64,000 nt of DNA. It comes from Candidatus Omnitrophota bacterium. Lineage in GTDB: Bacteria > Omnitrophota > Gorgyraeia > Gygaellales > Profunditerraquicolaceae. Below the pieces are notes generated by a model, which was not told where the DNA came from, did no database searches, and was given only the letters and a program-made list of their open reading frames with translations. Made by a program: the position numbers and the translations under genes. The stretch is from assembly GCA_022710715.1 (NCBI GenBank), contig JAKLGJ010000002.1, positions 147,791-211,790 on the forward strand. The letters run 5' to 3'. This document shows, one piece after another, positions 5,596 to 64,000 of the stretch (position 1 is the first letter of the stretch; each line of letters opens with the position of its first letter).

Positions 5596-8070
<2,475 letters not shown>

Positions 8071-8078
8071 TTATTGTA

Positions 8079-8414
8079 TCAAAGACCAGCGGATTTGCAA
8101 CTGTTTTTAATCGCCCGGGCCCGGCTGCTGCCGGTTGCGCCGACGCTCAAGCGGATATCCTTGATCTCTGCGCAGAAGGCCGCGAGCTTGTCTTTCAACT
8201 CCTGCCTGCGCAGGTTCAGATGATACAGCCGGCTTGACGAATCCACTTTTAATCCCAGCACGCCGTTGCGAAAATAAGCCACCGCGACATACCGGCGCTC
8301 CTGTTTGGTCAAAACCCTGTCCAGCCAATCGTCCGGACCCGGCGCGGGGCCGGCGCCGCCGTGTTTATGCAGATTATTAAGAACCGCCTGGACCGTCGTC
8401 TTGATGTCTTCCAT
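8079..8414 (-). CDS. DUF721-like small protein (the position recF-associated ORFs usually occupy)
   Basis: 111 aa ORF between dnaN and gyrB, abutting the dnaN stop. Size and position match DUF721/DciA-like proteins. The sequence match is weak. Confidence 0.45.
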   Translation of the reverse strand: MEDIKTTVQAVLNNLHKHGGAGPAPGPDDWLDRVLTKQERRYVAVAYFRNGVLGLKVDSSSRLYHLNLRRQELKDKLAAFCAEIKDIRLSVGATGSSRARAIKNSCKSAGL

Positions 8415-9506
8415 TTATCCCAGACGCATCGGCAGTACGATGTACACATACCCTTCGCTGCGCAGCACCGCGGGTTTCTCGCTGCCGGTTATTTCGATCT
8501 CCACTTTGTCCAGCGGAAGGTTCTTCAGAACGTCGATAAGATACCCGGGGTTGAATCCGATCACCAGCTCTTTACCCGAATACTCGCCGGAAATTTCCTC
8601 GCGCGACTCGCCCACATCCGGGGTCGATTTTGAGATCACCACCTTGTCTTTAAAAATCTCGAACTTCACCGCTTGATAATCCGGCGTCGCCAGCAAAGCT
8701 GCGCGTCGCACCGCAAGCAAAAACTGTTCGCGGTTAACCCTGATCTTGTGTTCGGCCGCCTGGGGAACCACCTGTTTGTAATCCGGGAACTCGCCCTCGA
8801 TCAACCGCGAAATGATGATCGAATCCTTAAAATCAAACAGGACCTGGTTCGGCCCGATCACCAGCGAAAGATCTCCCTCATCTTTAAGATTGCGCATCAG
8901 CTCCTGGATAGTTTTGAGGGGAACAATGATGCGAATTTCCTTATTGAAAGATTGTTTCAGTTTTTTAGTGCTGATGGCCAGCCGCTTGCCGTCCGTGGCT
9001 ACCAATGTGCAACTATTTTGGGAAAAAGCGAATAAAATACCGTTCAGGATATATCTGGTCTCATCCAAAGACACCGCGAAGGCGGTCTGGTTGAGCATCT
9101 GTTTCAATATCGACTGTTCGATCTGAATCACTTCCTTGTCTTTAAACTCCGGGAGTTTGGGGAATTCTTCCGCCGGCAACCCGATAATTTTAAACTGGCA
9201 TAGTTTGGTTTCTATGATCACAATATTATTCTTTTTTGTATTTATCTCTACTGTGGTTTCCGATAATTCACGGATAATATTGCTGAATCTTCGCGCCGGA
9301 AGAGTTATGGCGCCTGTCTCCAGGATATTCACAGGAATTACACAGCTTATTCCAATATTCAAATCCGTGGCGGTCAGGCGTAAAGAATCCTTGTGCGCTT
9401 CCAATAAAAAATTGGATAGTATAGGTAAGGTGGATTTGGTACTGATAACATTTTGTATGGTATCAATCCCCCGTAAGAGAACATCTTTATCAACCTTAAA
9501 TTTCAT
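8415..9506 (-). CDS. dnaN: DNA polymerase III beta sliding clamp
   Basis: 363 aa, N-terminus MKFKVDKDVLLRGIDTIQNVISTKSTLPILSNFLLEA, three-domain clamp length. Confidence 0.9.
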   Translation of the reverse strand: MKFKVDKDVLLRGIDTIQNVISTKSTLPILSNFLLEAHKDSLRLTATDLNIGISCVIPVNILETGAITLPARRFSNIIRELSETTVEINTKKNNIVIIETKLCQFKIIGLPAEEFPKLPEFKDKEVIQIEQSILKQMLNQTAFAVSLDETRYILNGILFAFSQNSCTLVATDGKRLAISTKKLKQSFNKEIRIIVPLKTIQELMRNLKDEGDLSLVIGPNQVLFDFKDSIIISRLIEGEFPDYKQVVPQAAEHKIRVNREQFLLAVRRAALLATPDYQAVKFEIFKDKVVISKSTPDVGESREEISGEYSGKELVIGFNPGYLIDVLKNLPLDKVEIEITGSEKPAVLRSEGYVYIVLPMRLG

Positions 9507-9646
9507 GGTACTCCTTTCTGTTATTAATAATATCTTAAATCAATAAATCATAGAATTAGTAATGGGTTTTGTTTCTGTTAAAAACTTCTTAATGCATTGT
9601 TAAAAAGAGCGTTAAAGAAAAAAGAACCTGTGAATATCCTTGGGGC

Positions 9647-10981
9647 TCATTGTTGAATGATGTGTATAAGTCTTCCCACCTTCTCTTTAAAACTGTCATT
9701 TACCCCCATCTCATCCTTGACTTTATTATATGAATGCAGGACGGTAGTGTGATCTTTTCCCCCAAAATGCGTCCCGATCTCGGGAAAAGACAGATCCGTG
9801 AGCTCGCGGCTCAAAAACATGGCGATTTGCCGGGGAATAACGATATTTTTATTGCGCCGGCGCATCTTGAGATCCTGCAAGGACACCCCGAATTCTTCGG
9901 CTACACAACGTTGAATAAAGTCAACCGTAACCAGCTTTTTCGGTTCCCGCAAAAGGTCTTTCAATACTTCTTTAGCCAGATCCAGGGTGATGGGTTTTTC
10001 TTCCAGCAGCGAATACGCGATAATGCGGATCAGGGCGCCTTCCAGCTCGCGGATATTGGTTTTGATCAGCTGCGCGATAAAAAAGATGACTTCATCGCTG
10101 ACCGTGACCGGTTCGCGCTCGATCTTCTTTTTTAAAATGGCCACCCGGGTTTCCAGGTCCGGCGGCTGCACGTCGGTGGTTAAGCCCCAGCTGAACCGCG
10201 ATACCAGGCGGTCCTGGAGATTTGCGATTTCCTTGGGGGTGCGGTCCGAGGAAATAATAATCTGTTTGTGCGCGTCATACAGCGCATTGAAGGTGTGAAA
10301 AAACTCTTCCTGCGTCGATTCTTTTCCGGCGATGAAATGGATATCGTCCAGCACCAGAACGTCGACATTGCGGAATTTCTGACGAAAGGCCGCGGTCGAA
10401 TGATGTTGAATGGCGTCGATCAATTCGTTGGTAAAGCGCTCCGAAGGCAGATAGCAGATTTTCAGCTGTCCGAAAGTTTCGCGGACATAATGACAGATCG
10501 CCTGCATGAGATGGGTTTTCCCCAGCCCCACGCCTCCGTAAATGAAAAGTGGATTATAGGTTTTGCCGGGCGCTTTGGCTACGGCCAGCGAATAAGCGTG
10601 CGCGTGCCGGTTTGAGGCGCCCAGGACGAAATTTTCAAAGGTGTAGCGGGGATTCAAAGAAAGGTCCTGGGGATACGTGACGGTTTTTACCGGCTCGCCC
10701 GAACCGGAGGCCTTACTTTGAACGTGGGCCCGGGCCGGGCTGACTTCGATCACCAGGTCAAGGTCTTCTTTTCCGGCTTGTTGTACTGCTGCCAGCAGCG
10801 CCGCGCGGTAATGTTGCTCCACCCAATCTTTGAAAAAACTGTCCGGCGCCAGAACGATCACGGTATGCTTGGATTTTTCTTTAAAGGTCAGCGGGGAAAT
10901 CCAGGTTTGAAAGACCGTTTCCGGAAGTTTAGCCTTGAGGAGTGTTTGGGCTTCTGCCCAGAGCTTCTGAACTTCAGACAT
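9647..10981 (-). CDS. dnaA: chromosomal replication initiator DnaA
   Basis: Walker A GGVGLGKTHL, AAA+ domain and C-terminal DnaA-box-binding HTH. Start preferred at MSEVQKLW (10981) rather than the track M at 11002. Confidence 0.9.
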   Translation of the reverse strand: MSEVQKLWAEAQTLLKAKLPETVFQTWISPLTFKEKSKHTVIVLAPDSFFKDWVEQHYRAALLAAVQQAGKEDLDLVIEVSPARAHVQSKASGSGEPVKTVTYPQDLSLNPRYTFENFVLGASNRHAHAYSLAVAKAPGKTYNPLFIYGGVGLGKTHLMQAICHYVRETFGQLKICYLPSERFTNELIDAIQHHSTAAFRQKFRNVDVLVLDDIHFIAGKESTQEEFFHTFNALYDAHKQIIISSDRTPKEIANLQDRLVSRFSWGLTTDVQPPDLETRVAILKKKIEREPVTVSDEVIFFIAQLIKTNIRELEGALIRIIAYSLLEEKPITLDLAKEVLKDLLREPKKLVTVDFIQRCVAEEFGVSLQDLKMRRRNKNIVIPRQIAMFLSRELTDLSFPEIGTHFGGKDHTTVLHSYNKVKDEMGVNDSFKEKVGRLIHIIQQ

Positions 10982-13492: not shown

Positions 13493-14296
13493 ATGGGAAA
13501 AACAATAGCGGTTTGTAATCAAAAAGGCGGAACTGGTAAAACAACCTCGGCTATTAATCTTGCGGCGTATTTTGCTATCTTTGGGAAAAAGGTTTTATTG
13601 ATCGATCTGGATCCCCAAGCAAATGCTACCAGCGGAGTCGGAGTTGATAAACACAAGGTAAGCAAGAGTACCTACCACATTCTTCTGGAAGAATTTCCCA
13701 TAAAAGAAAGTCTCAAGAGCACCGCCATCGAAACTCTTTGGGTGGCTCCGGCGAATCTTGATCTTACTGGCGCTGAAGTGGAACTGGTGAGTACTCTGGG
13801 CCGTGAGTATCGGCTGAAAAAAGCTATTGAGCCGGAAAAAGAGCATTTCGACTATATCATTATTGACGCGCCTCCGTCGCTGGGTCTGCTTACCATTAAT
13901 GCGCTTTCCGCGGCAGACTCGATTCTCATCCCGGTACAATGCGAGTATTACGCTTTGGAAGGATTGACCCAGCTTATGAATACCTTCAATCTGGTTAAAA
14001 GTCATCTTAATCCTGAACTGACGATTGAAGGCGTGGTATTAACCATGGCGGATTTTCGCACTAATCTCACTAAGGAAGTGATCAATGAAGTTAAAAACTT
14101 TTTTAAAGATAAAGTGTATCATTCGATTATCCCGCGCAGTATCAAATTAGGGGAAGCTCCTAGTTATGGAAAGCCAGTTGCGCTATACGATAAGGAAAAT
14201 ATTGGCGCCAGAAAATATGAAGAGCTAGCCAAGGAAATTTTGGGAACACTAACCGTATCACCGTCTCGTGATACGGTTATCGAGCAGGAGGCTTAA
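13493..14296 (+). CDS. parA: chromosome partitioning ATPase ParA/Soj
   Basis: Deviant Walker A KGGTGKTT, 267 aa. Confidence 0.9.
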   Translation: MGKTIAVCNQKGGTGKTTSAINLAAYFAIFGKKVLLIDLDPQANATSGVGVDKHKVSKSTYHILLEEFPIKESLKSTAIETLWVAPANLDLTGAEVELVSTLGREYRLKKAIEPEKEHFDYIIIDAPPSLGLLTINALSAADSILIPVQCEYYALEGLTQLMNTFNLVKSHLNPELTIEGVVLTMADFRTNLTKEVINEVKNFFKDKVYHSIIPRSIKLGEAPSYGKPVALYDKENIGARKYEELAKEILGTLTVSPSRDTVIEQEA

Positions 14297-15174
14297 TGGA
14301 AAGAAAAGCGTTGGGAAAAGGAATAAGCGCATTGATCCCGGAGCCGGAAAAAGATCGCGGCGAAAAAATTGCGCTGATACCGACAGAACAAATTACTGCC
14401 AATCCGTTGCAGCCGCGCGAAGATTTTTCGTCGGAAGAATTAGATGACCTGGTTAGTTCGATCCGCGAAAAAGGGATTTTACAGCCGGTACTGGTAAGGC
14501 GTAAAGGCGACGCTTTTGAATTGATTGCCGGAGAACGCAGACTGCGGGCCGCAAAAATGTTAAGCCTGCAAGAGGTGCCAGTGATCATTAAAGATGTGGA
14601 TGATCGCGATTCGCTGGAGCTGGCATTAATTGAAAATGTACAACGGCAAAATCTCAATGTGATTGAAGAGGCGCGGGCTTTTCAGTACCTGATTGAAAAA
14701 TTCAATTTGACCCAGGAAGAGGTTAGCCAGGTAATCGGTAAGTCCCGGGAATCGGTAGCGAATATGTTGCGCTTGCTTAAACTTCCTACGGAAGTCCTGG
14801 ATGAGATTCGCGGCGGGAGAATGAGTTTTGGACATGGCCGGGCGCTGCTCGAGCTGCAGGACGAAAATCAACAGCGCAGGCTTGCCCAGACCACCATCTC
14901 TAAGTCATTGTCGGTAAGGGAGTTAGAAAATTTAGTTAAACATTCCCGTCCACGTTCGCGCAGATTGGCCATTACCGCTGCCGGGCTGGATCCATTTGTG
15001 TCTCTGCTGGAAGCAGAGCTTCAGCAGATCTTGGCGACTAAAGTGCGGATCATCAAAAGAAAAAAACGGGGTCGCATTGTGATCGATTTTTATTCCCAGG
15101 AAGACATGGAGCGCATTATTGGAAAAATGAGAGGAGAGACGAAACATGAATCAGGCAGTGCTCATTCTGATTAA
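14296..15174 (+). CDS. parB: chromosome partitioning protein ParB/Spo0J
   Basis: ParB box GERRLRAA plus an HTH and a C-terminal dimerisation region. Start overlaps the parA stop. Confidence 0.9.
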   Translation: MERKALGKGISALIPEPEKDRGEKIALIPTEQITANPLQPREDFSSEELDDLVSSIREKGILQPVLVRRKGDAFELIAGERRLRAAKMLSLQEVPVIIKDVDDRDSLELALIENVQRQNLNVIEEARAFQYLIEKFNLTQEEVSQVIGKSRESVANMLRLLKLPTEVLDEIRGGRMSFGHGRALLELQDENQQRRLAQTTISKSLSVRELENLVKHSRPRSRRLAITAAGLDPFVSLLEAELQQILATKVRIIKRKKRGRIVIDFYSQEDMERIIGKMRGETKHESGSAHSD

Positions 15175-51922: not shown

Positions 51923-52858
51923 TCAAGGCTCTTTGCGTTTGTCTACGACGTAATTGCTCCCGGGCAGGCTTTTGGCATAGGATTTCAATTCAGCGCCGAT
52001 TTCCCCGATTTGCGCGACGTGGTCGATTTTGATGTGCTGGTTGGTCACCACTCCGATACCGACTGAAAGCAGGGGGAACTTACGCTCCTGGCCCTGGCGG
52101 TCATGCGCAACGATATAGCCATTCGCCCGGTCGGTTTCGTTATAGAAGGTGGGAGAGACCGCATCGAAGGTGGCGATGATCGTGGTGCAGAGCACATCCA
52201 TTTTGGCGATAGTGGTGATCACCACGTAATCGTCGCCGCCGATATGTCCGACGAAATCCTCGGGATTGCCATGTTCCTGAACGGTTTTAAGCAATATGCG
52301 CGCAGTCTCCTTGATTACCCGGTCTCCGTGTTGGAACCCGTACGTGTCGTTATACGCCTTGAATTTGTTCAAATCGACATAACAAACGGCAAAAGCGTCT
52401 TTACTGCCCAGCCGGCGGTTTAATTCATCCAGGATGGAGACATTGCCGGGCAGGCGGGTCAGGGGATTGGCTTCGAGATCGATGCCGGAGCGGCGCAGGA
52501 TCATCCGGATATGCGCGATCAGCTCCTTTGGTTCAAACGGTTTGACGATATAATCATCCGCTCCCGCTTCGATGCCGTCCACCTTATCTGTCAACTCGCC
52601 CTTGCCGGTAACCATGATAATCGGCAGGTGGCGCAGGAGAATATCTTTTTTGATCCTGCGGCAGAATTCACGGCCGTCCATGCGGGGCATCTTGTAGTCC
52701 ACCAGGACCAGGTCGGGAACCTTCGTCTCGATGGCCTTCAGGGCTTCTTCTCCGTTACCCGCCTCGGTAACTTCGTACTTTTCGTCTTCCAGGGTAATTC
52801 TGATCACGTCGCGGATATCCGGATCGTCGTCGACAACGAGAATCTTAATGCTTGGCAT
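51923..52858 (-). CDS. response regulator: REC domain + GGDEF-family domain with non-canonical GGDDY site
   Basis: REC with phospho-acceptor context LVLVDYKMPRMDG. GGDEF fold (RLPGNVSILDELNRRL, DLNKFKAYNDTYGFQHGD) but signature reads HIGGDDYVV. Confidence 0.8.
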   Translation of the reverse strand: MPSIKILVVDDDPDIRDVIRITLEDEKYEVTEAGNGEEALKAIETKVPDLVLVDYKMPRMDGREFCRRIKKDILLRHLPIIMVTGKGELTDKVDGIEAGADDYIVKPFEPKELIAHIRMILRRSGIDLEANPLTRLPGNVSILDELNRRLGSKDAFAVCYVDLNKFKAYNDTYGFQHGDRVIKETARILLKTVQEHGNPEDFVGHIGGDDYVVITTIAKMDVLCTTIIATFDAVSPTFYNETDRANGYIVAHDRQGQERKFPLLSVGIGVVTNQHIKIDHVAQIGEIGAELKSYAKSLPGSNYVVDKRKEP

Positions 52859-52873
52859 ACAATCCCAGCTCCT

Positions 52874-54361
52874 TTATTGAGCGACCGGGAGGGTGAAGCT
52901 GAAGGTAGAACCGGCCCCGGCCGAGCTCTTTACCCAGATGGTTCCTTTGTGCGCTTCGATGATATGCTTGACCATGGCCAATCCCAGCCCCGTGCCCTTG
53001 ACTTCCTGATTGATGGTGGAATCCACGCGGTAAAATTCCACGAAGAGATTGTTAACCGCGTCTTCGGGAATGCCGCAGCCGGTATCGGCGATATCTATCT
53101 GCACCCGGCTGTTTTTCTGCGCCGCTCTTACCGTAATGGTCCCGCCCGGCGTATACTTGACGGCATTATTAATCAGGTTGATGCACACCCGTTTGATCTG
53201 TCCGTAATCGGCCAGTACCTCGGGTAGCGCAGCGTCAACATCCAGCCGGAATGCAATCTGTTTTTCCTTCATCTGCACCGCCAGCAGGTCGGCGACTTCC
53301 TCGACGACATTCCGCACATTCAGCGGGACGAGTTTTAAAGTGATCCGGCCCGATTCGATGCGGGCGATGTCCAGCAGGTCATTGACGAATGAAACGAGCT
53401 CGTCGCTGTGCTTGTTGATCTTTTCCAGGCGTTTATGCACCTCTTCGGGAATAGCGCCAAGTTTGCCCGAGAGCAGGATAGAGGCGTATCCTTTGATCGA
53501 AGTAAGGGGGGTGCGCAGCTCATGAGAAACATTGGAAACGAAATCGTTTTTGCGCTGGCTGATGCGCTTGACTTCTTCCAGCGCTACGCTTAATTCTCTC
53601 GTACGTTCTTCCACCCGCTTTTCCAGCTCTTGATGCGCCTGCCAGGTTTTTTCGAAAAGACGGGCGTTCTCCAGCGCCTGACCGATCTGATTCGCCAGGA
53701 TGTTCATTAATTCTTCATCCCCTTCGTTAATGATCAGATCGGGGTCGGTTGAACCGACAAAAAGGAACCCCTTATTGCCTTCTTTCGGCAGGATGGGAGA
53801 GATAACGAAAGAAATGACTTTGAAGGTTTTCTTTATCTGTTCTCTCAATTGCCGGTCGACCTGCGGCGATACCGACGACATGCCTTTTTCATTATTGATC
53901 ATCTGGTGGAACGCGTCGCTCTGCGCCTGGACGAATTGCCGGATAGCTTCGAGCTCCTCTTCCGCGTAGTTGAGCTCCAGATAAAAGATATAATTGCCGG
54001 TAAACTCATTGCGTAAAAATGCCGCGGCTTTCTCGAACCCGAGATTTTCCACCAGCTCCTGCTCGATCTTGCCGAAAATCTGCGTTTCGTCCAGCGTCGA
54101 ACTGATCGAGCGGGTCAGCTTTTGCAGGGTGTAAAGACCGTTGACCTTCTTATCCAGTTCTTCCTGCGTTTTGTTCAGTTCGATATCGGTGCGCACGACC
54201 AGCTTGGCCTGTTCATCCATCTCGTCCAGGGTGTATTTGAGATTGTTGACCGAGGTCTCAAGCTGGCTGACCTGTCCGATCTTCAGAACCAGCACGATTG
54301 CCAGGGCGATGCATCCGGCAAAGCTCGCCAGGCCCAGTATCATCATCAGGAAGTCAAACAT
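52874..54361 (-). CDS. sensor histidine kinase (TM anchor - coiled coil - GAF - HisKA - HATPase_c)
   Basis: H-box SHELRTPLTSIKGYASIL; N, G1 (DTGCGIP) and G2 (GTGLGLAMVK) boxes. Confidence 0.85.
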   Translation of the reverse strand: MFDFLMMILGLASFAGCIALAIVLVLKIGQVSQLETSVNNLKYTLDEMDEQAKLVVRTDIELNKTQEELDKKVNGLYTLQKLTRSISSTLDETQIFGKIEQELVENLGFEKAAAFLRNEFTGNYIFYLELNYAEEELEAIRQFVQAQSDAFHQMINNEKGMSSVSPQVDRQLREQIKKTFKVISFVISPILPKEGNKGFLFVGSTDPDLIINEGDEELMNILANQIGQALENARLFEKTWQAHQELEKRVEERTRELSVALEEVKRISQRKNDFVSNVSHELRTPLTSIKGYASILLSGKLGAIPEEVHKRLEKINKHSDELVSFVNDLLDIARIESGRITLKLVPLNVRNVVEEVADLLAVQMKEKQIAFRLDVDAALPEVLADYGQIKRVCINLINNAVKYTPGGTITVRAAQKNSRVQIDIADTGCGIPEDAVNNLFVEFYRVDSTINQEVKGTGLGLAMVKHIIEAHKGTIWVKSSAGAGSTFSFTLPVAQ

Positions 54362-54363
54362 AA

Positions 54364-55617
54364 TTATGCCTCAATAATAAGTATGGAAATAGTCTGGTTC
54401 TGGAAATACGCCTGTCCGTGGTAGCTGGTGGATAAGAGCGGGGCCAGCTCCCCATGGGTATACACGCCGATTATCGGGGTCTCCGGGTCAAGGGTTTCCC
54501 GGATAAGCTCGAGTTCTTTCTTTATCTCGCGGCGTAACGAAACCGCGCGGGGGAATGAATTGAAAATAATCGCCATCTTCGACGAATCGTTCTTGTGAAA
54601 ACGGTAGGATTGCGATGCCAGATGCGTTTTGGCTTCATTGAGCGCTTCCCGTGTTGCCTCCAGACAGGTTTCTTTGGTGCTGATCATCAAACGCACGGAA
54701 CTGCCGGTTTGCACGTTCCCCCGGCAGACCAGGGAACCGTCGTCGCCTATAGAGGTCACGTTGCGCAGGAGATATTCCTGTTGCCCGGGCACGCGCATCC
54801 CGAAAGGATAGAGAATGGACAACTTTTTGAATTCTTTCTTGAGCCGGGAGATGTCATAGTTGAGATATTCTTCATAGATACCGATCGCCGGCTGGTCGTC
54901 GATGGAAACGATGATGTTGTCGTATGCCTGGGTGATCGTATGGGGTTTCCCCAATGGTTTCCAGCCGTGTTTCAACCCCAGTCCGAAATTGAATTTTCCT
55001 CCCCAGAGGATTCCTATGCAGGCGTTATTGAGGATCGTGGTGTTAAAGAAAAGCGAATCGCGGCCGGCCAGCGCCGGATTGGAAATCGACGCCCCGATGC
55101 AGGGAAAGCTTCGGCCCAGTTTAGACTGCAGACCGGTCATGAATTGCGCTCCGGATTCTTCCATGCGGTCAAAGAGCAGGAAGCTTAAGGTCCGGGAGAC
55201 ATTCTGGAAGCCGTACAGAAGCTTTTCTCCCAGATCTTCTCCGGCAGCAGTGCTGGTGGCAAATTCGTTGGTTTTAGTGTAGGCGGTGTTGAAATAAACC
55301 CCCTCGGGGAAGCCGATGAGCATGACGACAAGCCCGTGATTGAAAATGCCTTTTTCCGTGATGAGCGCCGAAGAATTTGAGCCGAAAATGGGGACGTCGC
55401 CGAGGAAGGTGTTGAGATGCTTGATCAGTGCGACTGACGAGAAATCCGCGGTACTGAACGTGAGCACCAGATCGATCTTTTCTTTGCTGGCTTTTCTTGA
55501 TTTTGCCTGCCGGACCGCCTCTTCTGAAGCAGCGATCTCGTTCTTCTCAAGACTTACGCCAACGCCTATGTCGATCATTATTTTGTCAGTTCGATAGCGG
55601 TCGTTTAATCGCACCAT
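54364..55617 (-). CDS. FIST-domain sensory protein (FIST_N + FIST_C)
   Basis: 417 aa; IDIGVGVS N-terminus and overall FIST architecture. Heads the 3-gene operon with the HK and RR. Confidence 0.65.
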   Translation of the reverse strand: MVRLNDRYRTDKIMIDIGVGVSLEKNEIAASEEAVRQAKSRKASKEKIDLVLTFSTADFSSVALIKHLNTFLGDVPIFGSNSSALITEKGIFNHGLVVMLIGFPEGVYFNTAYTKTNEFATSTAAGEDLGEKLLYGFQNVSRTLSFLLFDRMEESGAQFMTGLQSKLGRSFPCIGASISNPALAGRDSLFFNTTILNNACIGILWGGKFNFGLGLKHGWKPLGKPHTITQAYDNIIVSIDDQPAIGIYEEYLNYDISRLKKEFKKLSILYPFGMRVPGQQEYLLRNVTSIGDDGSLVCRGNVQTGSSVRLMISTKETCLEATREALNEAKTHLASQSYRFHKNDSSKMAIIFNSFPRAVSLRREIKKELELIRETLDPETPIIGVYTHGELAPLLSTSYHGQAYFQNQTISILIIEA

Positions 55618-55802: not shown

Positions 55803-56465
55803 ATGAAAACCGACTGCGATTATCAGCGGCTCAATTCCTCCGACGAACGCCCTGAAAAAGACCCCTTTACTGAAAGCAGATATCGGCAATTCGTCCGTTA
55901 TTTACCAACCATGTCAAAAGTAGTTCTTGATGTCGGCTGTAATGCCGGCAGGGGGGGCATGGTGCTTAGGCGGGAGCGTAAAGATTTGCAACTGATTGGG
56001 CTGGATTGCGTTACGGCTCACCTCAAAAAGATCCCTTCGGATATCTATCAGCAACTTCTTTGTTGTTCCGCCACGAGCATAGCTTTAGATGATGCGTCCG
56101 TAGATGCGGTTGTTGCCGGAGAGTTCATTGAGCACATCTATGCGCAGGATGTTGCAAAAACTCTGCAGGAGTGCTGGCGTGTCCTGCGCAAGGGAGGCAG
56201 GTTGCTGCTGACCACCCCGAATCCGGATTTCCTGCTGCTCAAGGCAAGAGGGAAAAGCGTGCTTGGGGGGCCGCACGTTTCCCAGCATAATCCCCGCGAA
56301 CTTATTCGTCTTCTCCACTCTATCGGCTTTTGCCCGGTCAAGATCGCCGGCAGCGGCCGGGTTTCTTCTCTGCTGGGAGAACATTTTCCCGTGTTCTCCT
56401 GTTACGGCAGCTACCTCGCCCTCGCCGACAAACCCGCAGACGCTTTCCCCAACCCAATGCGGTAA
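55803..56465 (+). CDS. class I SAM-dependent methyltransferase (Methyltransf_11-like)
   Basis: Motif I VLDVGCNAGRGG and post-I acidic residue LIGLD; GGRLLLTTPNPD. Starts 11 nt after the tRNA-Glu CCA. Confidence 0.7.
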   Translation: MKTDCDYQRLNSSDERPEKDPFTESRYRQFVRYLPTMSKVVLDVGCNAGRGGMVLRRERKDLQLIGLDCVTAHLKKIPSDIYQQLLCCSATSIALDDASVDAVVAGEFIEHIYAQDVAKTLQECWRVLRKGGRLLLTTPNPDFLLLKARGKSVLGGPHVSQHNPRELIRLLHSIGFCPVKIAGSGRVSSLLGEHFPVFSCYGSYLALADKPADAFPNPMR

Positions 56466-57281
56466 AAAGAGTTACAATAATATTATTCCCTCATTAAAAA
56501 TTAATAAAATTTATCGTTAGATTTGTCGACTTCGCGCGTCTATTATAGCGGAGAAGACAAATGCCTTCATGCGCTAGAAAACATCGATTAACAGGATCGC
56601 TTATTTACCATATCTTCAATCGCGGCAATAGCCGCAAGGTCATCTTTTGTGATGAGTCGGATTGCATTTTCTTCAAATGTCTCCTTAAAAAATACATTGA
56701 ACTGTTCTCTATACAGATTTATCACTGGGTAATCATGCCCAATCATTATCATTTATTGCTGGAGATTGCCGAGCCGCGGTTAATTTCGCGGGTCATGGCC
56801 GGCCTTAATGTTTCATACACCAGGCATTTTCACCGGAAATATGAGACATATGGTCTATTGTGGCAAGGAAGATTTAAATCGCAGCCGGTGCAGAAAGAGT
56901 CTTATCTTTTTGCCTGCGGCAGATATATCGAGCGAAACCCGGTGAGGAAGAACATAGTATCGGTCGCCGCGGAGTATGCACATAGCAGCGCGCGGTTTTA
57001 TTGCCTGGGGGAGAATGATGACATCACCTGCGAGGATCCGTATTTTCGGGAGTTCGGCCGGAGCTTAAACGATGCGCAGGCGCATTATGCGCGTTATTTA
57101 CTTGGGTTCGATCGGACTGAAGAAAGCCAATTCCGCAAAATTGATATTCCCTTAGGGGATAGAATCTTTGTGAATAAGTTGCGGAAGGAGAGGGGGCTTT
57201 ATGTCCCTGCCGGTCCAGGAAAACCGCGAGCGAATATCATTGCAACTAATTGCTAGACTAATATTTGGGGAAAGCGTCTGC
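56466..57281 (+). mobile_element. putative small insertion carrying the RAYT/IS200-like transposase (boundaries not defined)
   Basis: AT-rich DNA and a transposase gene next to a tRNA gene. No terminal inverted repeats or REP hairpins identified. Confidence 0.3.
56561..57256 (+). CDS. IS200/IS605-family HUH (Y1) transposase, RAYT-like
   Basis: HUH motif NHYHLLLE and catalytic Tyr context RYIERNPVR. The gene and the 95-nt stretch before it look AT-rich against the GC-rich surroundings. Confidence 0.75.
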   Translation: MPSCARKHRLTGSLIYHIFNRGNSRKVIFCDESDCIFFKCLLKKYIELFSIQIYHWVIMPNHYHLLLEIAEPRLISRVMAGLNVSYTRHFHRKYETYGLLWQGRFKSQPVQKESYLFACGRYIERNPVRKNIVSVAAEYAHSSARFYCLGENDDITCEDPYFREFGRSLNDAQAHYARYLLGFDRTEESQFRKIDIPLGDRIFVNKLRKERGLYVPAGPGKPRANIIATNC

Positions 57282-58550
57282 CTAGAAGGAGAGTTCTTCG
57301 GTGCTCACGATTTTGACCTGGCCGTTATCCTGAATATCGCCTGAAACTTCAATGATCACCAGATCATTTTCCTGGGCTCCGGAGAGTATCTGGGCATAAT
57401 CGCTGGTAAAGTATCCCACGGAAACCGAGCGTGTCTGCACTACTCCGATCTGTCCCTCATCGGGATTGCCCTGAATGGAAGCAGCGGGAATAACCAGCAA
57501 CTGGAAAGCTTCGTTAACATTGATCAGGGCGCTGGAAGGCACCATGAGGGCATTGTCCAGTTCAACAATGCTTAAGTCCGCCCGGCTGAACATCCCCGGC
57601 AGCAACAGTCCTTCGTCATTCTTCACCTTGAGCTTAACCGTAAGGGTCCGGCTTTTTCCTTCCACAATCGGGAAGATATATTCCACGAATCCCTGAAAAG
57701 GTATGGTCGGGTAGGCGTCGACATAAATCTTGGCTTTCTGCCCGATCTTGACTTTCTCGATATCGCGCTCGACCACGCCGACTTCCACGAAGACGTTCTT
57801 GATCTCGAACAGGGAGCCAACCTTATCCTGGGAAGTGACGAATTCGCCTTCTTCCGCATCGCGCGGCCCCATCACGCCGTCTTTGGTGGCGTATATCTTG
57901 GTTTTCTTCATTTCGTTTTCCGCGATCTGCAGTTCGCTGCGCGCGGTTTCCAGCTGGTAGCGAGCGCTTTCTACTTCCAATTCGATTTGTTCCATCTTGG
58001 ATTTGATAATCGCGCCGGCTTCATAGAGTTTTTTATGGATTTCCAGTTGTTTAAGCACGGAATTGTACCCTGCCTGCGCGGAATGGAATTTGCTCTGGGC
58101 GTATACATATTTCAGCTCGGCGTCGCGGGAGTTGAGGATGGCAATAAGGTCGCCCTTTTTGATCTTCTCGCCTTCGCGGAAAAAGATCTTTTCGATCACG
58201 CCGTTGATTTCAAAGCGCAATTCGACTTCGGTTTCGCCTTTGACCGTGCCCATGACCGGAAGCACGTCGATAAATTTAGGCGCGACTTTCAAACGCAGGG
58301 TGCGGGCTTGCGGCAGAATGGTTTCCGCGGGCGCCAGCGGTTGGCCGTCTTTGCCTTGCGTTTCAGGCGATTCCGGCGCCTGCTCTCCGGAAGTCTTTTG
58401 CTGGACGGTTTCTTTTATTTTCTCTATGGTTTCGGGAATGGAGGCGTCCGGGCCGACTTTCAAATAGGTCTTGAGCATTCCCCAGCCGATGAAGACGATC
58501 CAGAATAAGACCACCAGGCCCAGCAGCAGCTTGGCAATTTTTGCGCCCAT
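57282..58550 (-). CDS. RND efflux membrane fusion protein (periplasmic adaptor subunit)
   Basis: N-terminal TM, coiled-coil hairpin, lipoyl/beta-barrel/MP domains. 422 aa. Confidence 0.8.
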   Translation of the reverse strand: MGAKIAKLLLGLVVLFWIVFIGWGMLKTYLKVGPDASIPETIEKIKETVQQKTSGEQAPESPETQGKDGQPLAPAETILPQARTLRLKVAPKFIDVLPVMGTVKGETEVELRFEINGVIEKIFFREGEKIKKGDLIAILNSRDAELKYVYAQSKFHSAQAGYNSVLKQLEIHKKLYEAGAIIKSKMEQIELEVESARYQLETARSELQIAENEMKKTKIYATKDGVMGPRDAEEGEFVTSQDKVGSLFEIKNVFVEVGVVERDIEKVKIGQKAKIYVDAYPTIPFQGFVEYIFPIVEGKSRTLTVKLKVKNDEGLLLPGMFSRADLSIVELDNALMVPSSALINVNEAFQLLVIPAASIQGNPDEGQIGVVQTRSVSVGYFTSDYAQILSGAQENDLVIIEVSGDIQDNGQVKIVSTEELSF

Positions 58551-58610: not shown

Positions 58611-61600
58611 TTATTTTCTGACCAGCCGGAAATCAACGAAGATCATGTATACGCAGGGAATGATCAGCAGCGTCAGCACGGTGGAAACCGTCATGCCTCC
58701 GATGACCGTGATGGCCAGCGGCGCCCAGAGGTTCGAAGATTCGCTCTTGTCCAGGGCCATGGGGATCAGCCCCAGTATCGTGGTCAACGAGGTCATCATG
58801 ATCGGACGCAAGCGGTGCAACGAGGATTCTATTACCGCTTTACGCACGGTCATCAGGTAATCCGGATTCTTGCGCACAAAATTGATGCGGTCCACCAGAA
58901 CAATGGCGTTGTTGACCACAATGCCGAAAAGCATGATCCCGCCGATAAGCACGCCGGTGCCTACCGGTTTGTTGGTGTAGCGCAGCGCCAGAATCGCGCC
59001 GATGATCGCCAGCGGAACGGTGGCCATGATGATAAATGGCTGCGCCATCGATTCAAACAGGCTGGCCAGCACCATATATACCAGAATCAGGGCGCCCACG
59101 ACTGCGACCACCAGCTCTTTCTGGGTATTGACCATTTTTTCGTAATTGCCGCCCAGTTCCCAGCGGTAATCCAGAGAAGGCAATTGCAGCTCGGTCAGCG
59201 CCTGTTTAACCAGGTCCGCGGCAGTGCCCAGAGCGGTGCCGCCGGTATTCGCGCTGACCTGGACCATGCGCGATTTGTTTTTGCGCCAGATCTCGCTGGG
59301 ACCGACCTCGAATTTAAATTCCGCGATCTGGGTTAAAAATACCGGATGGCCGTCAGGGGTAACGAAACTGGTCCGGCGCAGCGCTTCAAATGAATTGCGG
59401 AAGCGCTCTTCTATACGGACAATGGTTTCGGTTTCTTTCGCTTCTTTGTCCGGCGCGGCGTCGGTTTTCTTGATCCCCGCGAAGGAAGTGGCTATGCCTT
59501 CCCGCGCGCTGGAATAAGAATCTTTGATGCGCACCATCGGTTCTTCTTTCCCGCGGTAACGGGTGGCGACCAGGCCGCGGGTATTGGTATGCAGCGCCAG
59601 GGCGATATTTTCTACGGTCAGCCCGAACAGCGCCGCCTGGCGCTTATCGATGTTGAAATGCAGCTCCGGCCGGCCTTCGCGCATGCGTATTTTAGTGTCG
59701 GTAAATTTGGGGATGCCCTGGACTTTCTGCGCGATCTGGATGGCCAGATCTTTGAGCCGGTCGTAGTCGTAGCCGAATATATCGATGATGATTTCCTTGG
59801 TCCCCACCTCTTCCTGTTCCTCGAAATAAATGAACGCCGGGTCCAGCGAGGCGGTCAGGGGGCGCAATTGTCCCATGACTTCCGCCGAGGAAAGCCGTCT
59901 CTTTTTGAACGGCACCAGTTCCACGAAGATCTTCGCCGACCAGGGCTCGACTTTCGCGGTAGAGGTTTTGATGTCGGGGAACTGCTTGAGGATCTTTTCG
60001 ACTTTCTCCACCACTTTGTTGGTCACGTCGATCCGGGTGCCGGTAGGCATTTCGATGAAGACGGTGAATTTGTTCTGTTCGGCGATCCCGATGAATTCCT
60101 TTTCCAGCTTTTTGCCTTCATTAAGAGCGTACATGAACGCGATCGCGGCGAGGATGACCAGCAGATAACGCAGGGCGATGATCACGGAGATGATCCCCCG
60201 GTAGAGATTCTGCATCAGCCGGATAAATCCTCGGTGTATGCGCTTGAGCAAACCGGGTTTCTTCTGCGGCTGCGCCGGATCGGGCAGGGAAACCGGGATG
60301 CGGGAGAGCATCAGCGGAACGATGGTCAACGCGGTCAAGAGCGAGGCGAGCAGAGAGAAGGTGATGGTTAAAGCGATCCCGCTGTAGAGCTGCTGGATCT
60401 CCTTGTTGATGAAGACCAGGGGAAGGAAAACGATTACCGAGGTGATCGTGGAGGTCACAATGGCCAGATACATCTCGTCCGCACCTTCCACCGCGCATTT
60501 CTTTTCCACTCCCGGGAAATGCAGATGCCGCTGCTCGATGATCTCGTCGCGTTTTTTGAAGACGTTATCCATAACCACAATGGCGTTATCCACGAGCATG
60601 CCCACGCCCAGGGCCAGACCGCTCAAAGAGATGACGTTCAGGGACAGGTTGGTTGCCCACATCAGGAAAAGGGTGAACAAAAGTGAGAAGGGGATGCAGG
60701 ACCCGATAATGTTGACCAGGCGAAAATCCCGCAGAAAAATAAGCAGGACCGCGACCGCCAGCAATGCGCCGACTAACAGCGAGGATTTGACCTGATTGAT
60801 GGCCTGCTGGATCACTTCGGCCTGGTTGAACGTCAGGTTGATCTGGATGTCTTTATCCACGATCCCGCGCAACTTGGCTACTTCTTCATGGATATGTTTG
60901 GATATCTTGACGGTGTTGGCGGTGGATTCTTTCTGCACGTAGATGGACACCACGGGATTGGCGTTGAGGCGGGCGAACGCCACCGGATCGAGATAGGAAT
61001 CTTTGACCTGGGCGACGTCCTTGAGCCGGATGACCGAGCCTTCCTTGGTGGTGGCTACCGCCAGGTTTTCGATGTCCGCAAGCGACTTGAACTCCCCGAT
61101 GGTCCGGACCAGGTATTTATTCCTGTCCCCATAAACTTCGCCGGCCATGGAGTTCTCGTTGTTCACGTTGATGATATCCACCAGCCGGTTAATGGGGAGC
61201 CCGTAGGCCTGTAATTTGCGCTGGTCGACGTCGATAATGATCTTGCCTTCGCGGCCTCCGGCGACTTCGGCATTCGCCACGCCTTCGACTCTCTGGATGC
61301 GGTCTTTGACGGTTTCGTCGACGATCTTGCGCAACTGTTCGGGGCTGCGGTTGACTCTGCTGGTTACTGCCAGGATCATGATCGGCACGTCCATATATTC
61401 GTATTTAGCCACGACGGGTTTTTCGATTTCCTGGGGGAGCCTGTTGCGGATGCGGTTGAATTTCTCGCGCACCTCCAGGGCGGCAAAATCCATGTTGATC
61501 CCCGGTTCGAATTCCAGGATAACGGTGGAGTTGCCTTCCTTGGAGATAGAGATGAGATTTTTGAGATGGGTGGCGCCGCCGACCGCTTCTTCCACCAGTT

Positions 61601-61796
61601 TGGTGATGCGTTTCTCTACTTCGGAAGCAGGCATGCCGCCGCGCACGTCGATATTGATGGTGATATCGCCGAAGGCGATATTGGGCATCATTTCCACGGG
61701 CAGCTGCATGAATGCTACGCAGCCGGCCAGGACAATGCCCAGCAGGAACATGAAGGTCAATGTCGGCCTTCGGACGGAAATATCGGGAATCGTCAT
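58611..61796 (-). CDS. RND efflux transporter permease subunit (AcrB/CzcA superfamily)
   Basis: 1061 aa, 12 TM helices with two large periplasmic loops. The NAIVVMDN and LRPIMMTSLTTILG motifs are characteristic. Confidence 0.9.
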   Translation of the reverse strand: MTIPDISVRRPTLTFMFLLGIVLAGCVAFMQLPVEMMPNIAFGDITINIDVRGGMPASEVEKRITKLVEEAVGGATHLKNLISISKEGNSTVILEFEPGINMDFAALEVREKFNRIRNRLPQEIEKPVVAKYEYMDVPIMILAVTSRVNRSPEQLRKIVDETVKDRIQRVEGVANAEVAGGREGKIIIDVDQRKLQAYGLPINRLVDIINVNNENSMAGEVYGDRNKYLVRTIGEFKSLADIENLAVATTKEGSVIRLKDVAQVKDSYLDPVAFARLNANPVVSIYVQKESTANTVKISKHIHEEVAKLRGIVDKDIQINLTFNQAEVIQQAINQVKSSLLVGALLAVAVLLIFLRDFRLVNIIGSCIPFSLLFTLFLMWATNLSLNVISLSGLALGVGMLVDNAIVVMDNVFKKRDEIIEQRHLHFPGVEKKCAVEGADEMYLAIVTSTITSVIVFLPLVFINKEIQQLYSGIALTITFSLLASLLTALTIVPLMLSRIPVSLPDPAQPQKKPGLLKRIHRGFIRLMQNLYRGIISVIIALRYLLVILAAIAFMYALNEGKKLEKEFIGIAEQNKFTVFIEMPTGTRIDVTNKVVEKVEKILKQFPDIKTSTAKVEPWSAKIFVELVPFKKRRLSSAEVMGQLRPLTASLDPAFIYFEEQEEVGTKEIIIDIFGYDYDRLKDLAIQIAQKVQGIPKFTDTKIRMREGRPELHFNIDKRQAALFGLTVENIALALHTNTRGLVATRYRGKEEPMVRIKDSYSSAREGIATSFAGIKKTDAAPDKEAKETETIVRIEERFRNSFEALRRTSFVTPDGHPVFLTQIAEFKFEVGPSEIWRKNKSRMVQVSANTGGTALGTAADLVKQALTELQLPSLDYRWELGGNYEKMVNTQKELVVAVVGALILVYMVLASLFESMAQPFIIMATVPLAIIGAILALRYTNKPVGTGVLIGGIMLFGIVVNNAIVLVDRINFVRKNPDYLMTVRKAVIESSLHRLRPIMMTSLTTILGLIPMALDKSESSNLWAPLAITVIGGMTVSTVLTLLIIPCVYMIFVDFRLVRK

Positions 61797-61799
61797 GTT

Positions 61800-64000
61800 C
61801 TAGGTTAACTCATACCATCTGCCCGGGCCGAGGGGGCCTTTGCCGATGATACGTTTTTTATCCACCAGTTCTTTTAAATCTCTTGCCGCCGTGGGGATGG
61901 AAATATGCAACAGGTCCGCGTATTCCTTGCGGGTAATCTTTTTAAGTGTTTTCAGCTTCTCCAGGAGCTCCGCCTGCCGCGGGCTCACTTCGGCCGTTGC
62001 GCTTGTTGATTCGGCGGCAAGAGGAGTGGTTGGTTCGGCCGCCGGGACGGTTTCCCTGGCCGCCGGTTCCGCGGTTTGTCTGCGCTCGATCGTTTCTGCT
62101 GCTTTCTCGGGCAGTATCGGTTGGGCGGGAGCCGGTCGCGGCGCAGGTTTAGACCGGGGTTCGGCTCTGGTTGCTTTCTGCCGCTGGGCCAGTAATGCCT
62201 GCTGTTGTTTGCGCTGATCTTCGATTTCCTGGTGCAGATCGGCGATATGTTGCTCTCTCTCTGCGAGCTGTTTCTGCACTTCAATGATCTGTTTTTCCCG
62301 TTCGCTCACTGCGATCTTGTATCCCTGCAGCTGGCTTTGGAGTTTTGCTGAAAGATCCCCCATTTCCTTCTGCTTTTCTTCCAGGGAACGGTGCAGCTGT
62401 TCCATTTCCCCTCTTTTGCTGGCGACGGAAGAATCATGCTGGGTTTTCTGCTCTTCTATATGCCGTTGCAGATTCGCGATGTGTTTTTCTTTTTCCTGCA
62501 GCTGCGTCTGTATCTCGGCGAGTTGTTTTTCGCGTTCGCCTAGACTGGATGCATGCGAGGTTTGCTGGTGGCGGAGCTGTTCGGTAAGCGCGGAAAGCTT
62601 GGCTTGTTCAGCCGCCAACTCCGTCTGCATTTTTTGTTTGAGTATCTCTACGTCGGCAGCCGGGATTACCGGCTCCGGCGTCGCCGCAACCTGCGGTTGT
62701 GCCTGCTCCGCGGGCGCTGGTTGTGTATGCACGGGCGTTCCCGGCAAAACCGCCACGCCTTCGGCTTGAACCGGACTGCTTTTCGCGGGCTCTTCCCAGG
62801 TCACCAGCGCAGGAGAGGGCAGCCAGGGGAAGGTTTCCATAAGCAAGACGTAGGCTGCGGGGATGAAAACCAGCGTGAGAAAAGTCGATGAGATCAACCC
62901 GCCCATGACTGTCAGCGACATGGGCGCCTGCAATTCTGATCCTTCGCCGATGCCCAGGGCCAGCGGCAGCAAACCAAGGATGGTGGTTAAGGAGGTCATG
63001 AGAATGGGGCGCAGACGTATGCGGCTGGCTTCGATCGCCGCCTCCAGAGGAGAGTATCCTTCCTGACGCAGGGAGTTGATGAATTCTATGAGCACGATGC
63101 CGTTGTTGACGGCAATACCGCCGAGCATGATGATGCCCAGGTAGGCCACGACGCTCAAGGGGGTCCGGGTGATAAACAGAGAGAACGCCACGCCGATCAA
63201 TGAAAGCGGAACGGTGAACATGATCAGCAGCGGTTGCCATAACGATTCGAATTCGGCGGCCATGATCATATAGACCAGGATAATGGCGAAGGTCAAAGCG
63301 AAGGCCAGACTGGCGAAAGATTCTTTCATGCGCTGTTGTTCACCGGCCAGCTCGACCGAATAATCCATGGGAATGGTGGTTCTGCGCAATGCCGCAAGAA
63401 TAGTGTTGATGTCGTCGGCAATGCGGGAGAAATTCCGTTTATAGATGTTGGCGGTGACGATCACGCTGCGCTGCTGATCGATGCGCTTGATCTCGGTAGG
63501 GCCGGTGCCTTTGGTCAAATACGCCAGATCGGAAAGGGAGACGTCCATGCCCAGGGGGGAATGCACCAGCAGGTGGCGCAGGTTATTCAGGGCGTTTCTA
63601 TCCTGTGGCCGCAGCCGCACGCGGATGTCCACATCCTCTTCGATATTCTTTTCTTTGAACTTGGTCGCCACATAGCCTTTTAAGGCGACTTGAGAAGTGA
63701 CGGCGATATCGCGCACCGAGAGACCATAGAGCGAAGCCTTGTCCTTGCGGACCAGCAATTTAGTTTCCGGGCTCGGCGGCGACATGCTGCTTTTTACGCC
63801 GTAGACGCCGGAAATGTTCTTGAGCTTGCTTTCGATAATGGAAGCGAAGGTGGAGAGGCGGCGCAGGTCGGCGCCCTTGAGCTCGATGGCAATAGGCGCT
63901 CCCTGTTCGAGAGCGCTGCCCAGGGATGTTTCCTGGGCGATATATTCTATCTGCGCGCGTTCGGTTTCCTCTTTTTCCAGCCGCCCTTTGAGAAACTGGA
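61800..64000 (-). CDS. second RND permease, 5'-partial, with about 330-aa C-terminal cytoplasmic extension (coiled-coil repeats + winged-HTH-like domain)
   Basis: Reading frame continues open past the track M at 63785 to the window end (translation ...ELKGADLRRLSTFASIIESKLKNISGVYGVKSSMSPPSPE...). RND C-terminal half motifs NNGIVLIEF and LRPILMTSLTTILGLLPLAL, then a Q/E-rich repeat region, then C-terminal ITRKEYADLLHISIPTAARDLKELVDKKRIIGKGPLGPGRWYEL. Confidence 0.8.
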   Translation of the reverse strand, partial: QFLKGRLEKEETERAQIEYIAQETSLGSALEQGAPIAIELKGADLRRLSTFASIIESKLKNISGVYGVKSSMSPPSPETKLLVRKDKASLYGLSVRDIAVTSQVALKGYVATKFKEKNIEEDVDIRVRLRPQDRNALNNLRHLLVHSPLGMDVSLSDLAYLTKGTGPTEIKRIDQQRSVIVTANIYKRNFSRIADDINTILAALRRTTIPMDYSVELAGEQQRMKESFASLAFALTFAIILVYMIMAAEFESLWQPLLIMFTVPLSLIGVAFSLFITRTPLSVVAYLGIIMLGGIAVNNGIVLIEFINSLRQEGYSPLEAAIEASRIRLRPILMTSLTTILGLLPLALGIGEGSELQAPMSLTVMGGLISSTFLTLVFIPAAYVLLMETFPWLPSPALVTWEEPAKSSPVQAEGVAVLPGTPVHTQPAPAEQAQPQVAATPEPVIPAADVEILKQKMQTELAAEQAKLSALTEQLRHQQTSHASSLGEREKQLAEIQTQLQEKEKHIANLQRHIEEQKTQHDSSVASKRGEMEQLHRSLEEKQKEMGDLSAKLQSQLQGYKIAVSEREKQIIEVQKQLAEREQHIADLHQEIEDQRKQQQALLAQRQKATRAEPRSKPAPRPAPAQPILPEKAAETIERRQTAEPAARETVPAAEPTTPLAAESTSATAEVSPRQAELLEKLKTLKKITRKEYADLLHISIPTAARDLKELVDKKRIIGKGPLGPGRWYELT

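Follow-up and report, generated by a model that had tools for sequence, protein, structure and literature searches.

What could a domain of the DNA-binding type be doing at the end of an efflux pump? The question is raised by a gene at the far edge of a 64,000-nucleotide stretch of a Candidatus Omnitrophota genome (GenBank assembly GCA_022710715.1, contig JAKLGJ010000002.1, positions 147,791 to 211,790; the whole stretch is called the window below). The gene lies on the minus strand and encodes a permease of the resistance-nodulation-division (RND) type, whose transporter core is followed by a long tail ending in a winged helix-turn-helix (HTH) domain. Translation of positions 61800-63998 shows that the frame is open from the window edge (64000) to the stop codon at 61800..61802, and 3 nt separate this stop from the start of the next RND gene at 61796. 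The ATG at 63785 is internal to the frame and is not the gene start. The complete gene was found on a public record (L001, positions 5813-9997; L-numbers denote loci on public records and P-numbers homologous proteins); it codes for 1394 amino acids (aa), and about 2 kb of it continue past the window.

It has to be asked whether the fusion is real, as a frameshift or a chimeric assembly could have made one gene out of two, an RND permease and a regulator. Three records that were recovered by look-up of the downstream gene product (L001, L002 and L003) agree with the window at every one of the 2201 nt that they share with it, and the open reading frame (ORF) is uninterrupted in all three. These records could all go back to one set of raw reads, but an identical architecture with an in-frame junction is seen in more than 100 homologues, which come from independent samples and assemblers, and two of them (P0001 and P0020) can be aligned across the entire tail including its coiled coil. 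On the strength of the identical records and the homologues we reject an artefact, the probability of which we consider negligible: the window gene is a genuine, conserved HAE1-type RND permease with an extended cytoplasmic C-terminus.

The window covers the 3' part of the permease core (62814..64000, minus strand; residues ~662-1057 of 1394). It matches ACR_tran (PF00873) with an E-value of 1.2e-89, and the match extends up to residue 386 of the 732 aa encoded in the window, i.e. to profile position 1020 out of 1021. The protein is a full-length match to the 12-transmembrane (12-TM) ACR_tran architecture of HAE1-like RND permeases, and it can be aligned to solved RND permeases only at residues 8-1057. 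The best solved match is MdtB (9lyq_B, E 4.5e-95, chain residues 17-1031 of 1040), while the AcrB alignment covers AcrB residues 6-1033. The last hydrophobic 19-aa segment (Kyte-Doolittle value of at least 1.6) ends at residue 1053 and no hydrophobic segment was found beyond TM12, the maximum within the tail being 0.61. RND permeases with 12 TM helices have an established N-in/C-in topology, and because of the homology to AcrB and MdtB and the lack of any further TM segment the tail is predicted to be cytoplasmic. A periplasmic tail or one with an additional TM helix was ruled out, as nothing hydrophobic follows residue 1053. The initial annotation had taken the start at 63785 to be internal and the gene to run off the window, and it had read the locus as one fused gene, with about 330 cytoplasmic residues after the transporter core. 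All of this holds, the measured tail being 337 aa after about residue 1057.

The tail consists of four parts, as judged from composition and from an AlphaFold2 (AF2) model built on an alignment of four homologues that share the entire tail (all parts on the minus strand). Directly after TM12 there is a disordered Pro/Ala/Gln-rich linker (tail residues 1-45, 62661..62813; P 22%, A 18%) in which the predicted local distance difference test score (pLDDT) is about 40. It is followed by a single, uninterrupted alpha-helix of 165 residues (residues 46-210, 62166..62660) with pLDDT > 90, which would be about 24 nm long if straight. A second disordered linker, rich in Ala, Pro and Glu (residues 211-271, 61989..62165; A 25%, P 18%, E 15%; pLDDT 41-48), leads to a helix-helix-helix-strand-strand domain (residues 272-331). 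The 165-residue helix is rich in Q, E, L, A and K and has a hydrophobic periodicity of 3.5 residues (p = 0.006), with the a/d positions hydrophobic in 5.07 of 8 as compared to 3.07 in shuffled sequences. Since this heptad pattern is significant, a coiled-coil-like spacer is preferred over a charged single helix, and a single alpha-helix (ER/K) domain is disfavoured. Within the helix there are two copies of an internal repeat, EREKQLAEIQTQLQEKEKHIANLQRHIEEQK (62445..62537) and EREKQIIEVQKQLAEREQHIADLHQEIEDQR (62211..62303), which are offset by 78 residues and identical at 18 of 31 positions; the highest value in 300 composition shuffles was 13. The proline-rich linker after the core and the repeated unit had both been pointed out in the initial annotation. 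Its Q/E/K-rich segment is indeed helical and heptad-periodic, but it spans about 165 residues instead of the roughly 200 that had been proposed.

The last 62 residues (61803..61988, minus strand; net charge +6) form a DeoR-type winged HTH. Taken alone they score 23.6 bits against HTH_DeoR (PF08220; cut-off 21), as compared to 18.9 bits when scanned within the long protein, and the same profile matches 29 out of 29 members of the winged-helix family (best E 1e-11). An AF2 model based on 29 homologues has a pLDDT of 91.6 and consists of a three-helix bundle with a beta-hairpin wing (H3-15, H20-26, H31-43, E47-50, E58-61). In Foldseek searches the model falls among MarR, AspA, AdcR, ArsR-type CadC, DIP2311 and the Coxiella Fic2 protein (CbFic2), with TM-scores of 0.8-0.89, and an ESCRT-II chain is also among the fold matches. 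A sequence profile search of PDB gives the C-terminal HTH of Coxiella Fic2 first (8cil, E 0.003, over the whole domain) and CAP next. The invariant residues are R4, R20, Y23, S30, T33, A34, R36, D37, G51, P52, G56, R57 and Y59, with invariant Arg/Lys residues located in helix 3 and an invariant Arg in the wing. The terminal block had originally been described as a winged HTH akin to those at the C-termini of Fic proteins and some ATPases; the fold and the PF08220 matches bear out the former and 8cil, together with the AlbA_2/HATPase_c_4 proteins described below, the latter. The host protein is of another kind in each comparison. It does not have the layout of a DeoR-family regulator, as its HTH forms the very end of the chain and the tailed protein gave no DeoRC match; nor does it have that of ToxR or CadC, since its winged HTH is C-terminal, DeoR-type and attached to a 12-TM transporter. 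Neither a Fic catalytic domain with the motif HPFx[D/E]GN[G/K]R nor an AlbA_2/HATPase_c_4 catalytic domain was found in the tailed protein, which has the RND core upstream instead.

A search with the window protein retrieved more than 7000 RND proteins, and the architecture counts given here rest on the best 120. Of these, 115 have the same C-terminal winged helix with the motif TA[AS]RD[IL] in the same context, and nearly all homologues with a named source come from Candidatus Omnitrophota/Omnitrophica. There are 109 relatives in species-representative genomes, and all of the 80 loci retained belong to metagenome-assembled genomes (MAGs) of Omnitrophota or to MAGs labelled as uncultured Planctomycetia (labelled as Planctomycetes-Verrucomicrobia-Chlamydiae group, PVC). 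The winged helix is conserved as strongly as the pump core: in 106 homologues the mean identity to the window protein is 66% for the winged helix and 64% for the last 395 core residues. The tailed homologues are about 1150-1260 aa long because the usual spacer between core and winged helix is a Pro/Glu/Lys-rich stretch with a median of 69 aa (range 28-270). Among tailed homologues the coiled coil was found only in the window protein and in P0001, P0020, P0058 and P0059, and judged from this distribution it is a lineage-specific insert in the tail. The RND-winged-helix fusion, on the other hand, is phylum-wide and has been kept in more than 100 related species. Public records call these proteins "efflux RND transporter permease subunit" and in one case (P0093) "DeoR family transcriptional regulator". 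The architecture was not described in the literature that we searched on RND/winged-helix proteins, on Omnitrophota efflux and on membrane-tethered transporter-HTH fusions, nor in a 2021 review on tripartite efflux. This agrees with the initial annotation, which knew of no characterised fusion of this kind and had proposed the search of other genomes that found it in 115 of the 120 best homologues. We conclude that this is a genuine and conserved architecture of which the literature searched has no description, and that it combines an RND tripartite pump with a membrane-tethered winged-helix protein.

The tailed gene is part of an efflux operon. In every locus with enough sequence the next gene, only a few bases away, encodes a tail-less RND paralogue, called RND2, which in the window is 1061 aa long (58611..61796, minus strand) and 34% identical to the tailed core. 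The membrane-fusion protein (MFP), i.e. the periplasmic adaptor, is encoded in the same operon (57282..58550, minus strand; HlyD_D23, E 1.6e-31, supported by synteny). Two types of operon can be distinguished. Type A, to which the window belongs, consists of three signal-peptide proteins, the tailed RND gene, RND2 and MFP, and in many loci MFP is followed by genes for a FIST protein, a histidine kinase and a GGDEF response regulator. In the window these three lie just downstream of the efflux operon on the minus strand, at 54364-55617, 52874-54361 and 51923-52858, respectively. Type B consists of an outer-membrane efflux protein (OEP), MFP, the tailed RND gene and RND2, usually followed by a TM-anchored coiled-coil protein. 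The OEP gene is within the operon in type-B loci and in the type-A locus L016, and no OEP homologue was found within the 64-kb window. By its gene order the operon thus has an MdtBC-like two-permease tripartite pump layout, with the OEP partner known from related genomes. According to Pfam, no TetR- or MarR-type repressor is annotated beside the operon in L001, L004, L005 and L006.

A layout with tandem RND paralogues and a single membrane-fusion protein is also found in MdtABC and MuxABC-OpmB of Proteobacteria, which lack a cytoplasmic extension or DNA-binding domain. MdtABC has two permease genes and one adaptor, and its permeases form heterotrimers (PMC8277102). The two paralogues of the window are only 34% identical and both have MdtB (9lyq_B) as their best solved match, so the tandem pair probably arose independently of the MdtBC pair.

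The pump core itself deviates from AcrB. The proton relay of AcrB consists of Asp-Asp in TM4 and Lys940 in TM10, and this full set of residues was found in neither of the window paralogues. Both have "VDN" in TM4 and "VNN" in TM10 (in the tailed protein at about residues 419-430 and 956-967), i.e. as compared to AcrB one Asp is retained, the second Asp is replaced by Asn, and the Lys by Asn. Some homologues have "VDA" paired with "VDN" instead. Such variants hint at a co-varying, non-canonical proton relay.

A few neighbouring genes should also be mentioned. The three signal-peptide proteins (648, 361 and 254 aa) lie upstream, outside the window, at L001 1823-3769, 3787-4872 and 5003-5767. They have no Pfam match, and they are conserved between a riboswitch (see below) and the tailed RND gene in type-A loci. 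Given these conserved proteins without a Pfam match, the substrate or role of this "efflux" system may be other than drug export. Type-B operons have a conserved 392-aa protein directly after RND2 (L005 14816-15994; homologues in 23 loci), with an N-terminal TM helix, a coiled coil of about 270 aa and a small C-terminal beta domain; it could not be assigned to a family. Between the MFP and FIST genes of the window there are genes for an IS200-like Y1 transposase (56561-57256, plus strand) and a methyltransferase (55803-56465, plus strand), both of which are missing from that position in the related locus L004.

A winged-helix profile was also compared to 1.84 billion representative sequences. 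It gave 2687 matches, and the strongest were RND tails. Among the other carriers there are split proteins of about 320 aa (P0186, P0188, P0153) that consist of an N-terminal TM helix, a coiled coil of about 200 aa and the winged helix. In the loci of this kind, which represent one lineage, the gene order is RND, RND, the TM-coiled-coil-winged-helix protein (P0188, P0186), OEP and MFP (L088 and L087; L076 by translation), and the RND genes end right after TM12. The split-variant winged helices are 52-55% identical to that of the window, but their coiled coils cannot be aligned to it. A common origin of the window coiled coil with those of P0153 and P0188 was therefore rejected, and the coiled coil of the split variant was, by this comparison, acquired independently. 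Both fusion and fission of the winged helix thus occur; the features that stay constant are the membrane anchoring, the spacer and the membership in an efflux operon. In our view the split variant is the best argument for a joint function of winged helix and pump. The profile also matches proteins with AlbA_2 and HATPase_c_4 domains (P0226, P0121) at E ~1e-11, as well as stand-alone winged helices of 60-90 aa and proteins of about 366 aa that resemble Fic-family layouts. Six further proteins (P0174, P0179, P0184, P0187, P0203, P0227) contain 4-13 tandem copies of related winged helices, e.g. eight copies behind a signal-peptide-like N-terminus in P0174 and six after a ResIII/helicase core in P0179.

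What, then, does the tail do? The initial annotation had suggested, as a possibility, that it couples the state of the pump to transcription or to a partner in the cytoplasm. Our tentative answer, to which we assign a little less than an even chance, is that the winged helix is a membrane-tethered DNA-binding module and the efflux system's own regulator, acting most plausibly on efflux promoters. DNA binding is suggested by the fold, by the charge and by analogy to the Fic HTH domains; the top fold and profile matches are mostly DNA-binding regulators. CccR, a Yersinia Fic protein, uses this HTH to bind a palindrome in its own promoter and so represses itself (PMC9755527), and in CbFic2 the HTH mediates DNA-induced dimerisation (PMC10628234). 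Held at the inner membrane by the pump, the winged helix would bind DNA within a reach of tens of nanometres, and if it acted on the promoters of efflux genes, pump abundance would feed back on transcription. Such transcriptional feedback seems to be the most economical role for the domain.

A candidate binding site emerged when k-mers were counted in front of the operon's first gene in 32 type-B loci. The putative operator consists of direct repeats of CCGTATCA at the outer-membrane-factor promoters of related loci; TAACCGTATCA-N-AACCGTATCA repeats together with the promoter are found e.g. at L016 1310-1380 and L041 3510-3620. The type-B consensus promoter, TATTGACAAAA-N17-TGATATACT (TTGACA-N17-TATACT), is preceded by two copies of (A)ACCGTATCA at a distance of 10-11 bp. 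Across the loci the tandem copies have a period of 9-11 bp and directly precede the -35 box; in L028, L036, L039-L042, L044, L047 and L048 they are about 70-95 bp away from the OEP start, on its upstream side. Further copies of GCGTATCA are found within the first OEP codons, where synonymous positions are conserved. The 9-mer ACCGTATCA occurs 78 times in 1.11 Mb of loci, as opposed to an average of 6.3 for 9-mers of the same composition; 22 of the 78 copies are within the 1.2% of sequence at the operon 5' end, and 14 are at the 3' end of RND2. The type-A locus L016 has the same repeat-promoter arrangement before its OEP gene (1112-1133, 1320-1341). In a scan of metagenome contigs for CCGTATCA-N2-4-CCGTATCA the matches listed were mostly from unrelated organisms, with chance matches swamping the result. 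The only Omnitrophota-like ones among them were L195 and L202, where the motif precedes the gene of a small 2-TM protein. A small upstream ORF, s82, was considered as a hidden regulator and rejected, as it encodes a 2-TM membrane protein without an HTH.

If this tandem direct repeat upstream of the -35 box were the site of the winged helix, several tails of one pump trimer could bind the repeated sites in parallel orientation, and repeats of the same orientation would be well matched to a pump oligomer that carries several copies of the domain. In its most far-reaching form, the idea is that the pump itself is a transcription factor: the winged helices of the trimer would sit on the same-orientation (A)ACCGTATCA repeats by the -35 box of the outer-membrane-channel/efflux promoter, and might also use the second repeat cluster at the operon 3' end. 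This is speculative, and we consider it unlikely, at about one chance in five.

Several observations weigh against a regulatory role of the tail at the efflux promoters. The CCGTATCA motif was found neither around the window's own operon nor in the split-variant loci. In 14 loci with the strongest motif a gene for a ROK-family HTH protein is located directly upstream, so the binder of the motif could be this protein; there is no ROK gene near the same promoter architecture in L016, and none in the window. Moreover, the type-A operon already has a regulator in cis, as its leader matches the c-di-GMP-I-GGC riboswitch (RF03167). The scores are 59.2-69.9 bits, i.e. above the Rfam gathering score, in L016 (3478-3575), L007 (1260-1366), L033 (1269-1394) and L012 (1071-1177); in the window genome, where it is situated some 6 kb past the end of the window (L001 1609-1755), two large loop insertions reduce the score to 35.6 bits (E 7e-7). 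With such a regulator in place it is not evident that the operon would require a transcription factor of its own, and we are accordingly less confident of a simple autoregulation by the tail. CbFic2 still binds DNA after deletion of its HTH, as the rest of that protein binds as well (PMC10628234). Finally, a recognition helix that is near-invariant across the phylum fits a conserved protein partner as well as it fits a DNA site.

The last point leads to a different view of the domain, namely that the winged helix is a protein-interaction module that recruits or senses a cytoplasmic partner (cytoskeletal, signalling or proteolytic) and so places or controls the pump. Winged helices bind proteins in other systems, the ESCRT-II chain is one of the fold matches, and in RodZ a cytoplasmic HTH binds MreB. 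Recognition helix and wing are extremely conserved across species with differing promoters, the candidate DNA motif is missing at the window's own operon and the riboswitch already regulates the type-A operon, all of which would suit a protein partner. We nevertheless think this doubtful, roughly a one-in-five case, as the best fold and profile matches are dominated by DNA-binding regulators, the domain is basic with the conserved Arg/Lys pattern of DNA-contacting winged HTH domains, the C-terminal HTHs of Fic proteins, which are its closest relatives with a characterised function, bind DNA, and no gene for a possible partner is conserved alongside the fusion in operons of both types. It is also conceivable, if rather improbable, that the tail binds DNA in a structural role and anchors the nucleoid or a chromosomal site to the envelope through an abundant trans-envelope complex, in what are very small cells. 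The spacers are long, and in two lineages they are rigid coiled coils of independent origin, while membrane anchoring is conserved either by fusion to RND or by a single TM helix. In addition, the only copy of the motif in the window is a perfect palindrome with 12-bp arms, TAACCGTATCAC-N6-GTGATACGGTTA (14249-14280), at the 3' end of a parA-like ORF (13493-14296) with a parB-like ORF (14296-15174) following at once; the 10-mer in the arms of the palindrome also makes up the direct repeats at efflux promoters of other Omnitrophota. However, the link to parA is one locus combined with a putative assignment of the motif to the domain, the motif is elsewhere at promoters in activator- or repressor-like positions, and nothing explains why an efflux pump in particular should be the anchor. 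The least probable of these functional readings, with a chance that we put quite low, is that the tail is a pro-form from which regulated intramembrane or juxtamembrane proteolysis in the Pro-rich linkers would free the coiled coil and winged helix as a soluble transcription factor. On either side of the helix there is a disordered linker accessible to proteases, and linker length and composition vary freely, as would be expected of it; but the split variant retains its own TM anchor rather than being soluble, which argues that tethering itself matters, and no protease gene is conserved in the operon according to locus synteny. We thus return to the tethered DNA-binding module as our preferred, though tentative, explanation.

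It is instructive to compare the tailed permease to other proteins that combine similar elements. The same small DeoR-like subtype of winged HTH is found in Fic proteins (Yersinia CccR, Coxiella CbFic2, Shewanella SoFic) and in AlbA_2/HATPase_c_4 proteins, where it likewise forms the C-terminus and the protein serves mainly for something other than transcription. On the other hand, Fic proteins are soluble enzymes while the host in Omnitrophota is a 12-TM transporter, from which the winged helix is set off by a linker or coiled coil of 28-270 aa. ToxR, CadC and TcpP likewise have a cytoplasmic winged helix tethered to the inner membrane and presumably capture DNA from the membrane. They differ in their OmpR/PhoB-type, N-terminal winged HTH, single TM helix and periplasmic sensor, and there is no homology beyond the winged HTH superfold. 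FtsK has a similar overall layout: its polytopic membrane domain is followed by a long low-complexity linker rich in Pro and Gln, and the protein ends in a winged helix, the gamma domain, which recognises specific DNA. FtsK is not homologous; it has a translocase motor between linker and winged helix, and its role is in chromosome segregation. Within the RND superfamily, MmpL3 and other proteins have a long, largely disordered C-terminal extension in the cytoplasm, but the tail of MmpL3 is not known to contain a DNA-binding domain.

Few bacterial transporters have been studied as well as the RND pumps, and the characterised systems are, to our knowledge, regulated by separate soluble or two-component regulators. 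If the pump were itself a transcription factor, then the number, assembly state or conformation of the pumps in the membrane would directly set the transcription of the efflux machinery, and this covalent transporter-regulator circuit would have no described counterpart among RND systems. A permease that carries its own DNA-binding-type domain throughout a phylum would represent a new wiring from transporter to genome, be it feedback, flux sensing or tethering of the chromosome to the envelope. The winged helix is short and confidently folded, so it is accessible in vitro with synthetic DNA and without any culturing, and the fusion offers a concrete handle on gene regulation in the Omnitrophota, an uncultured phylum of very small cells.

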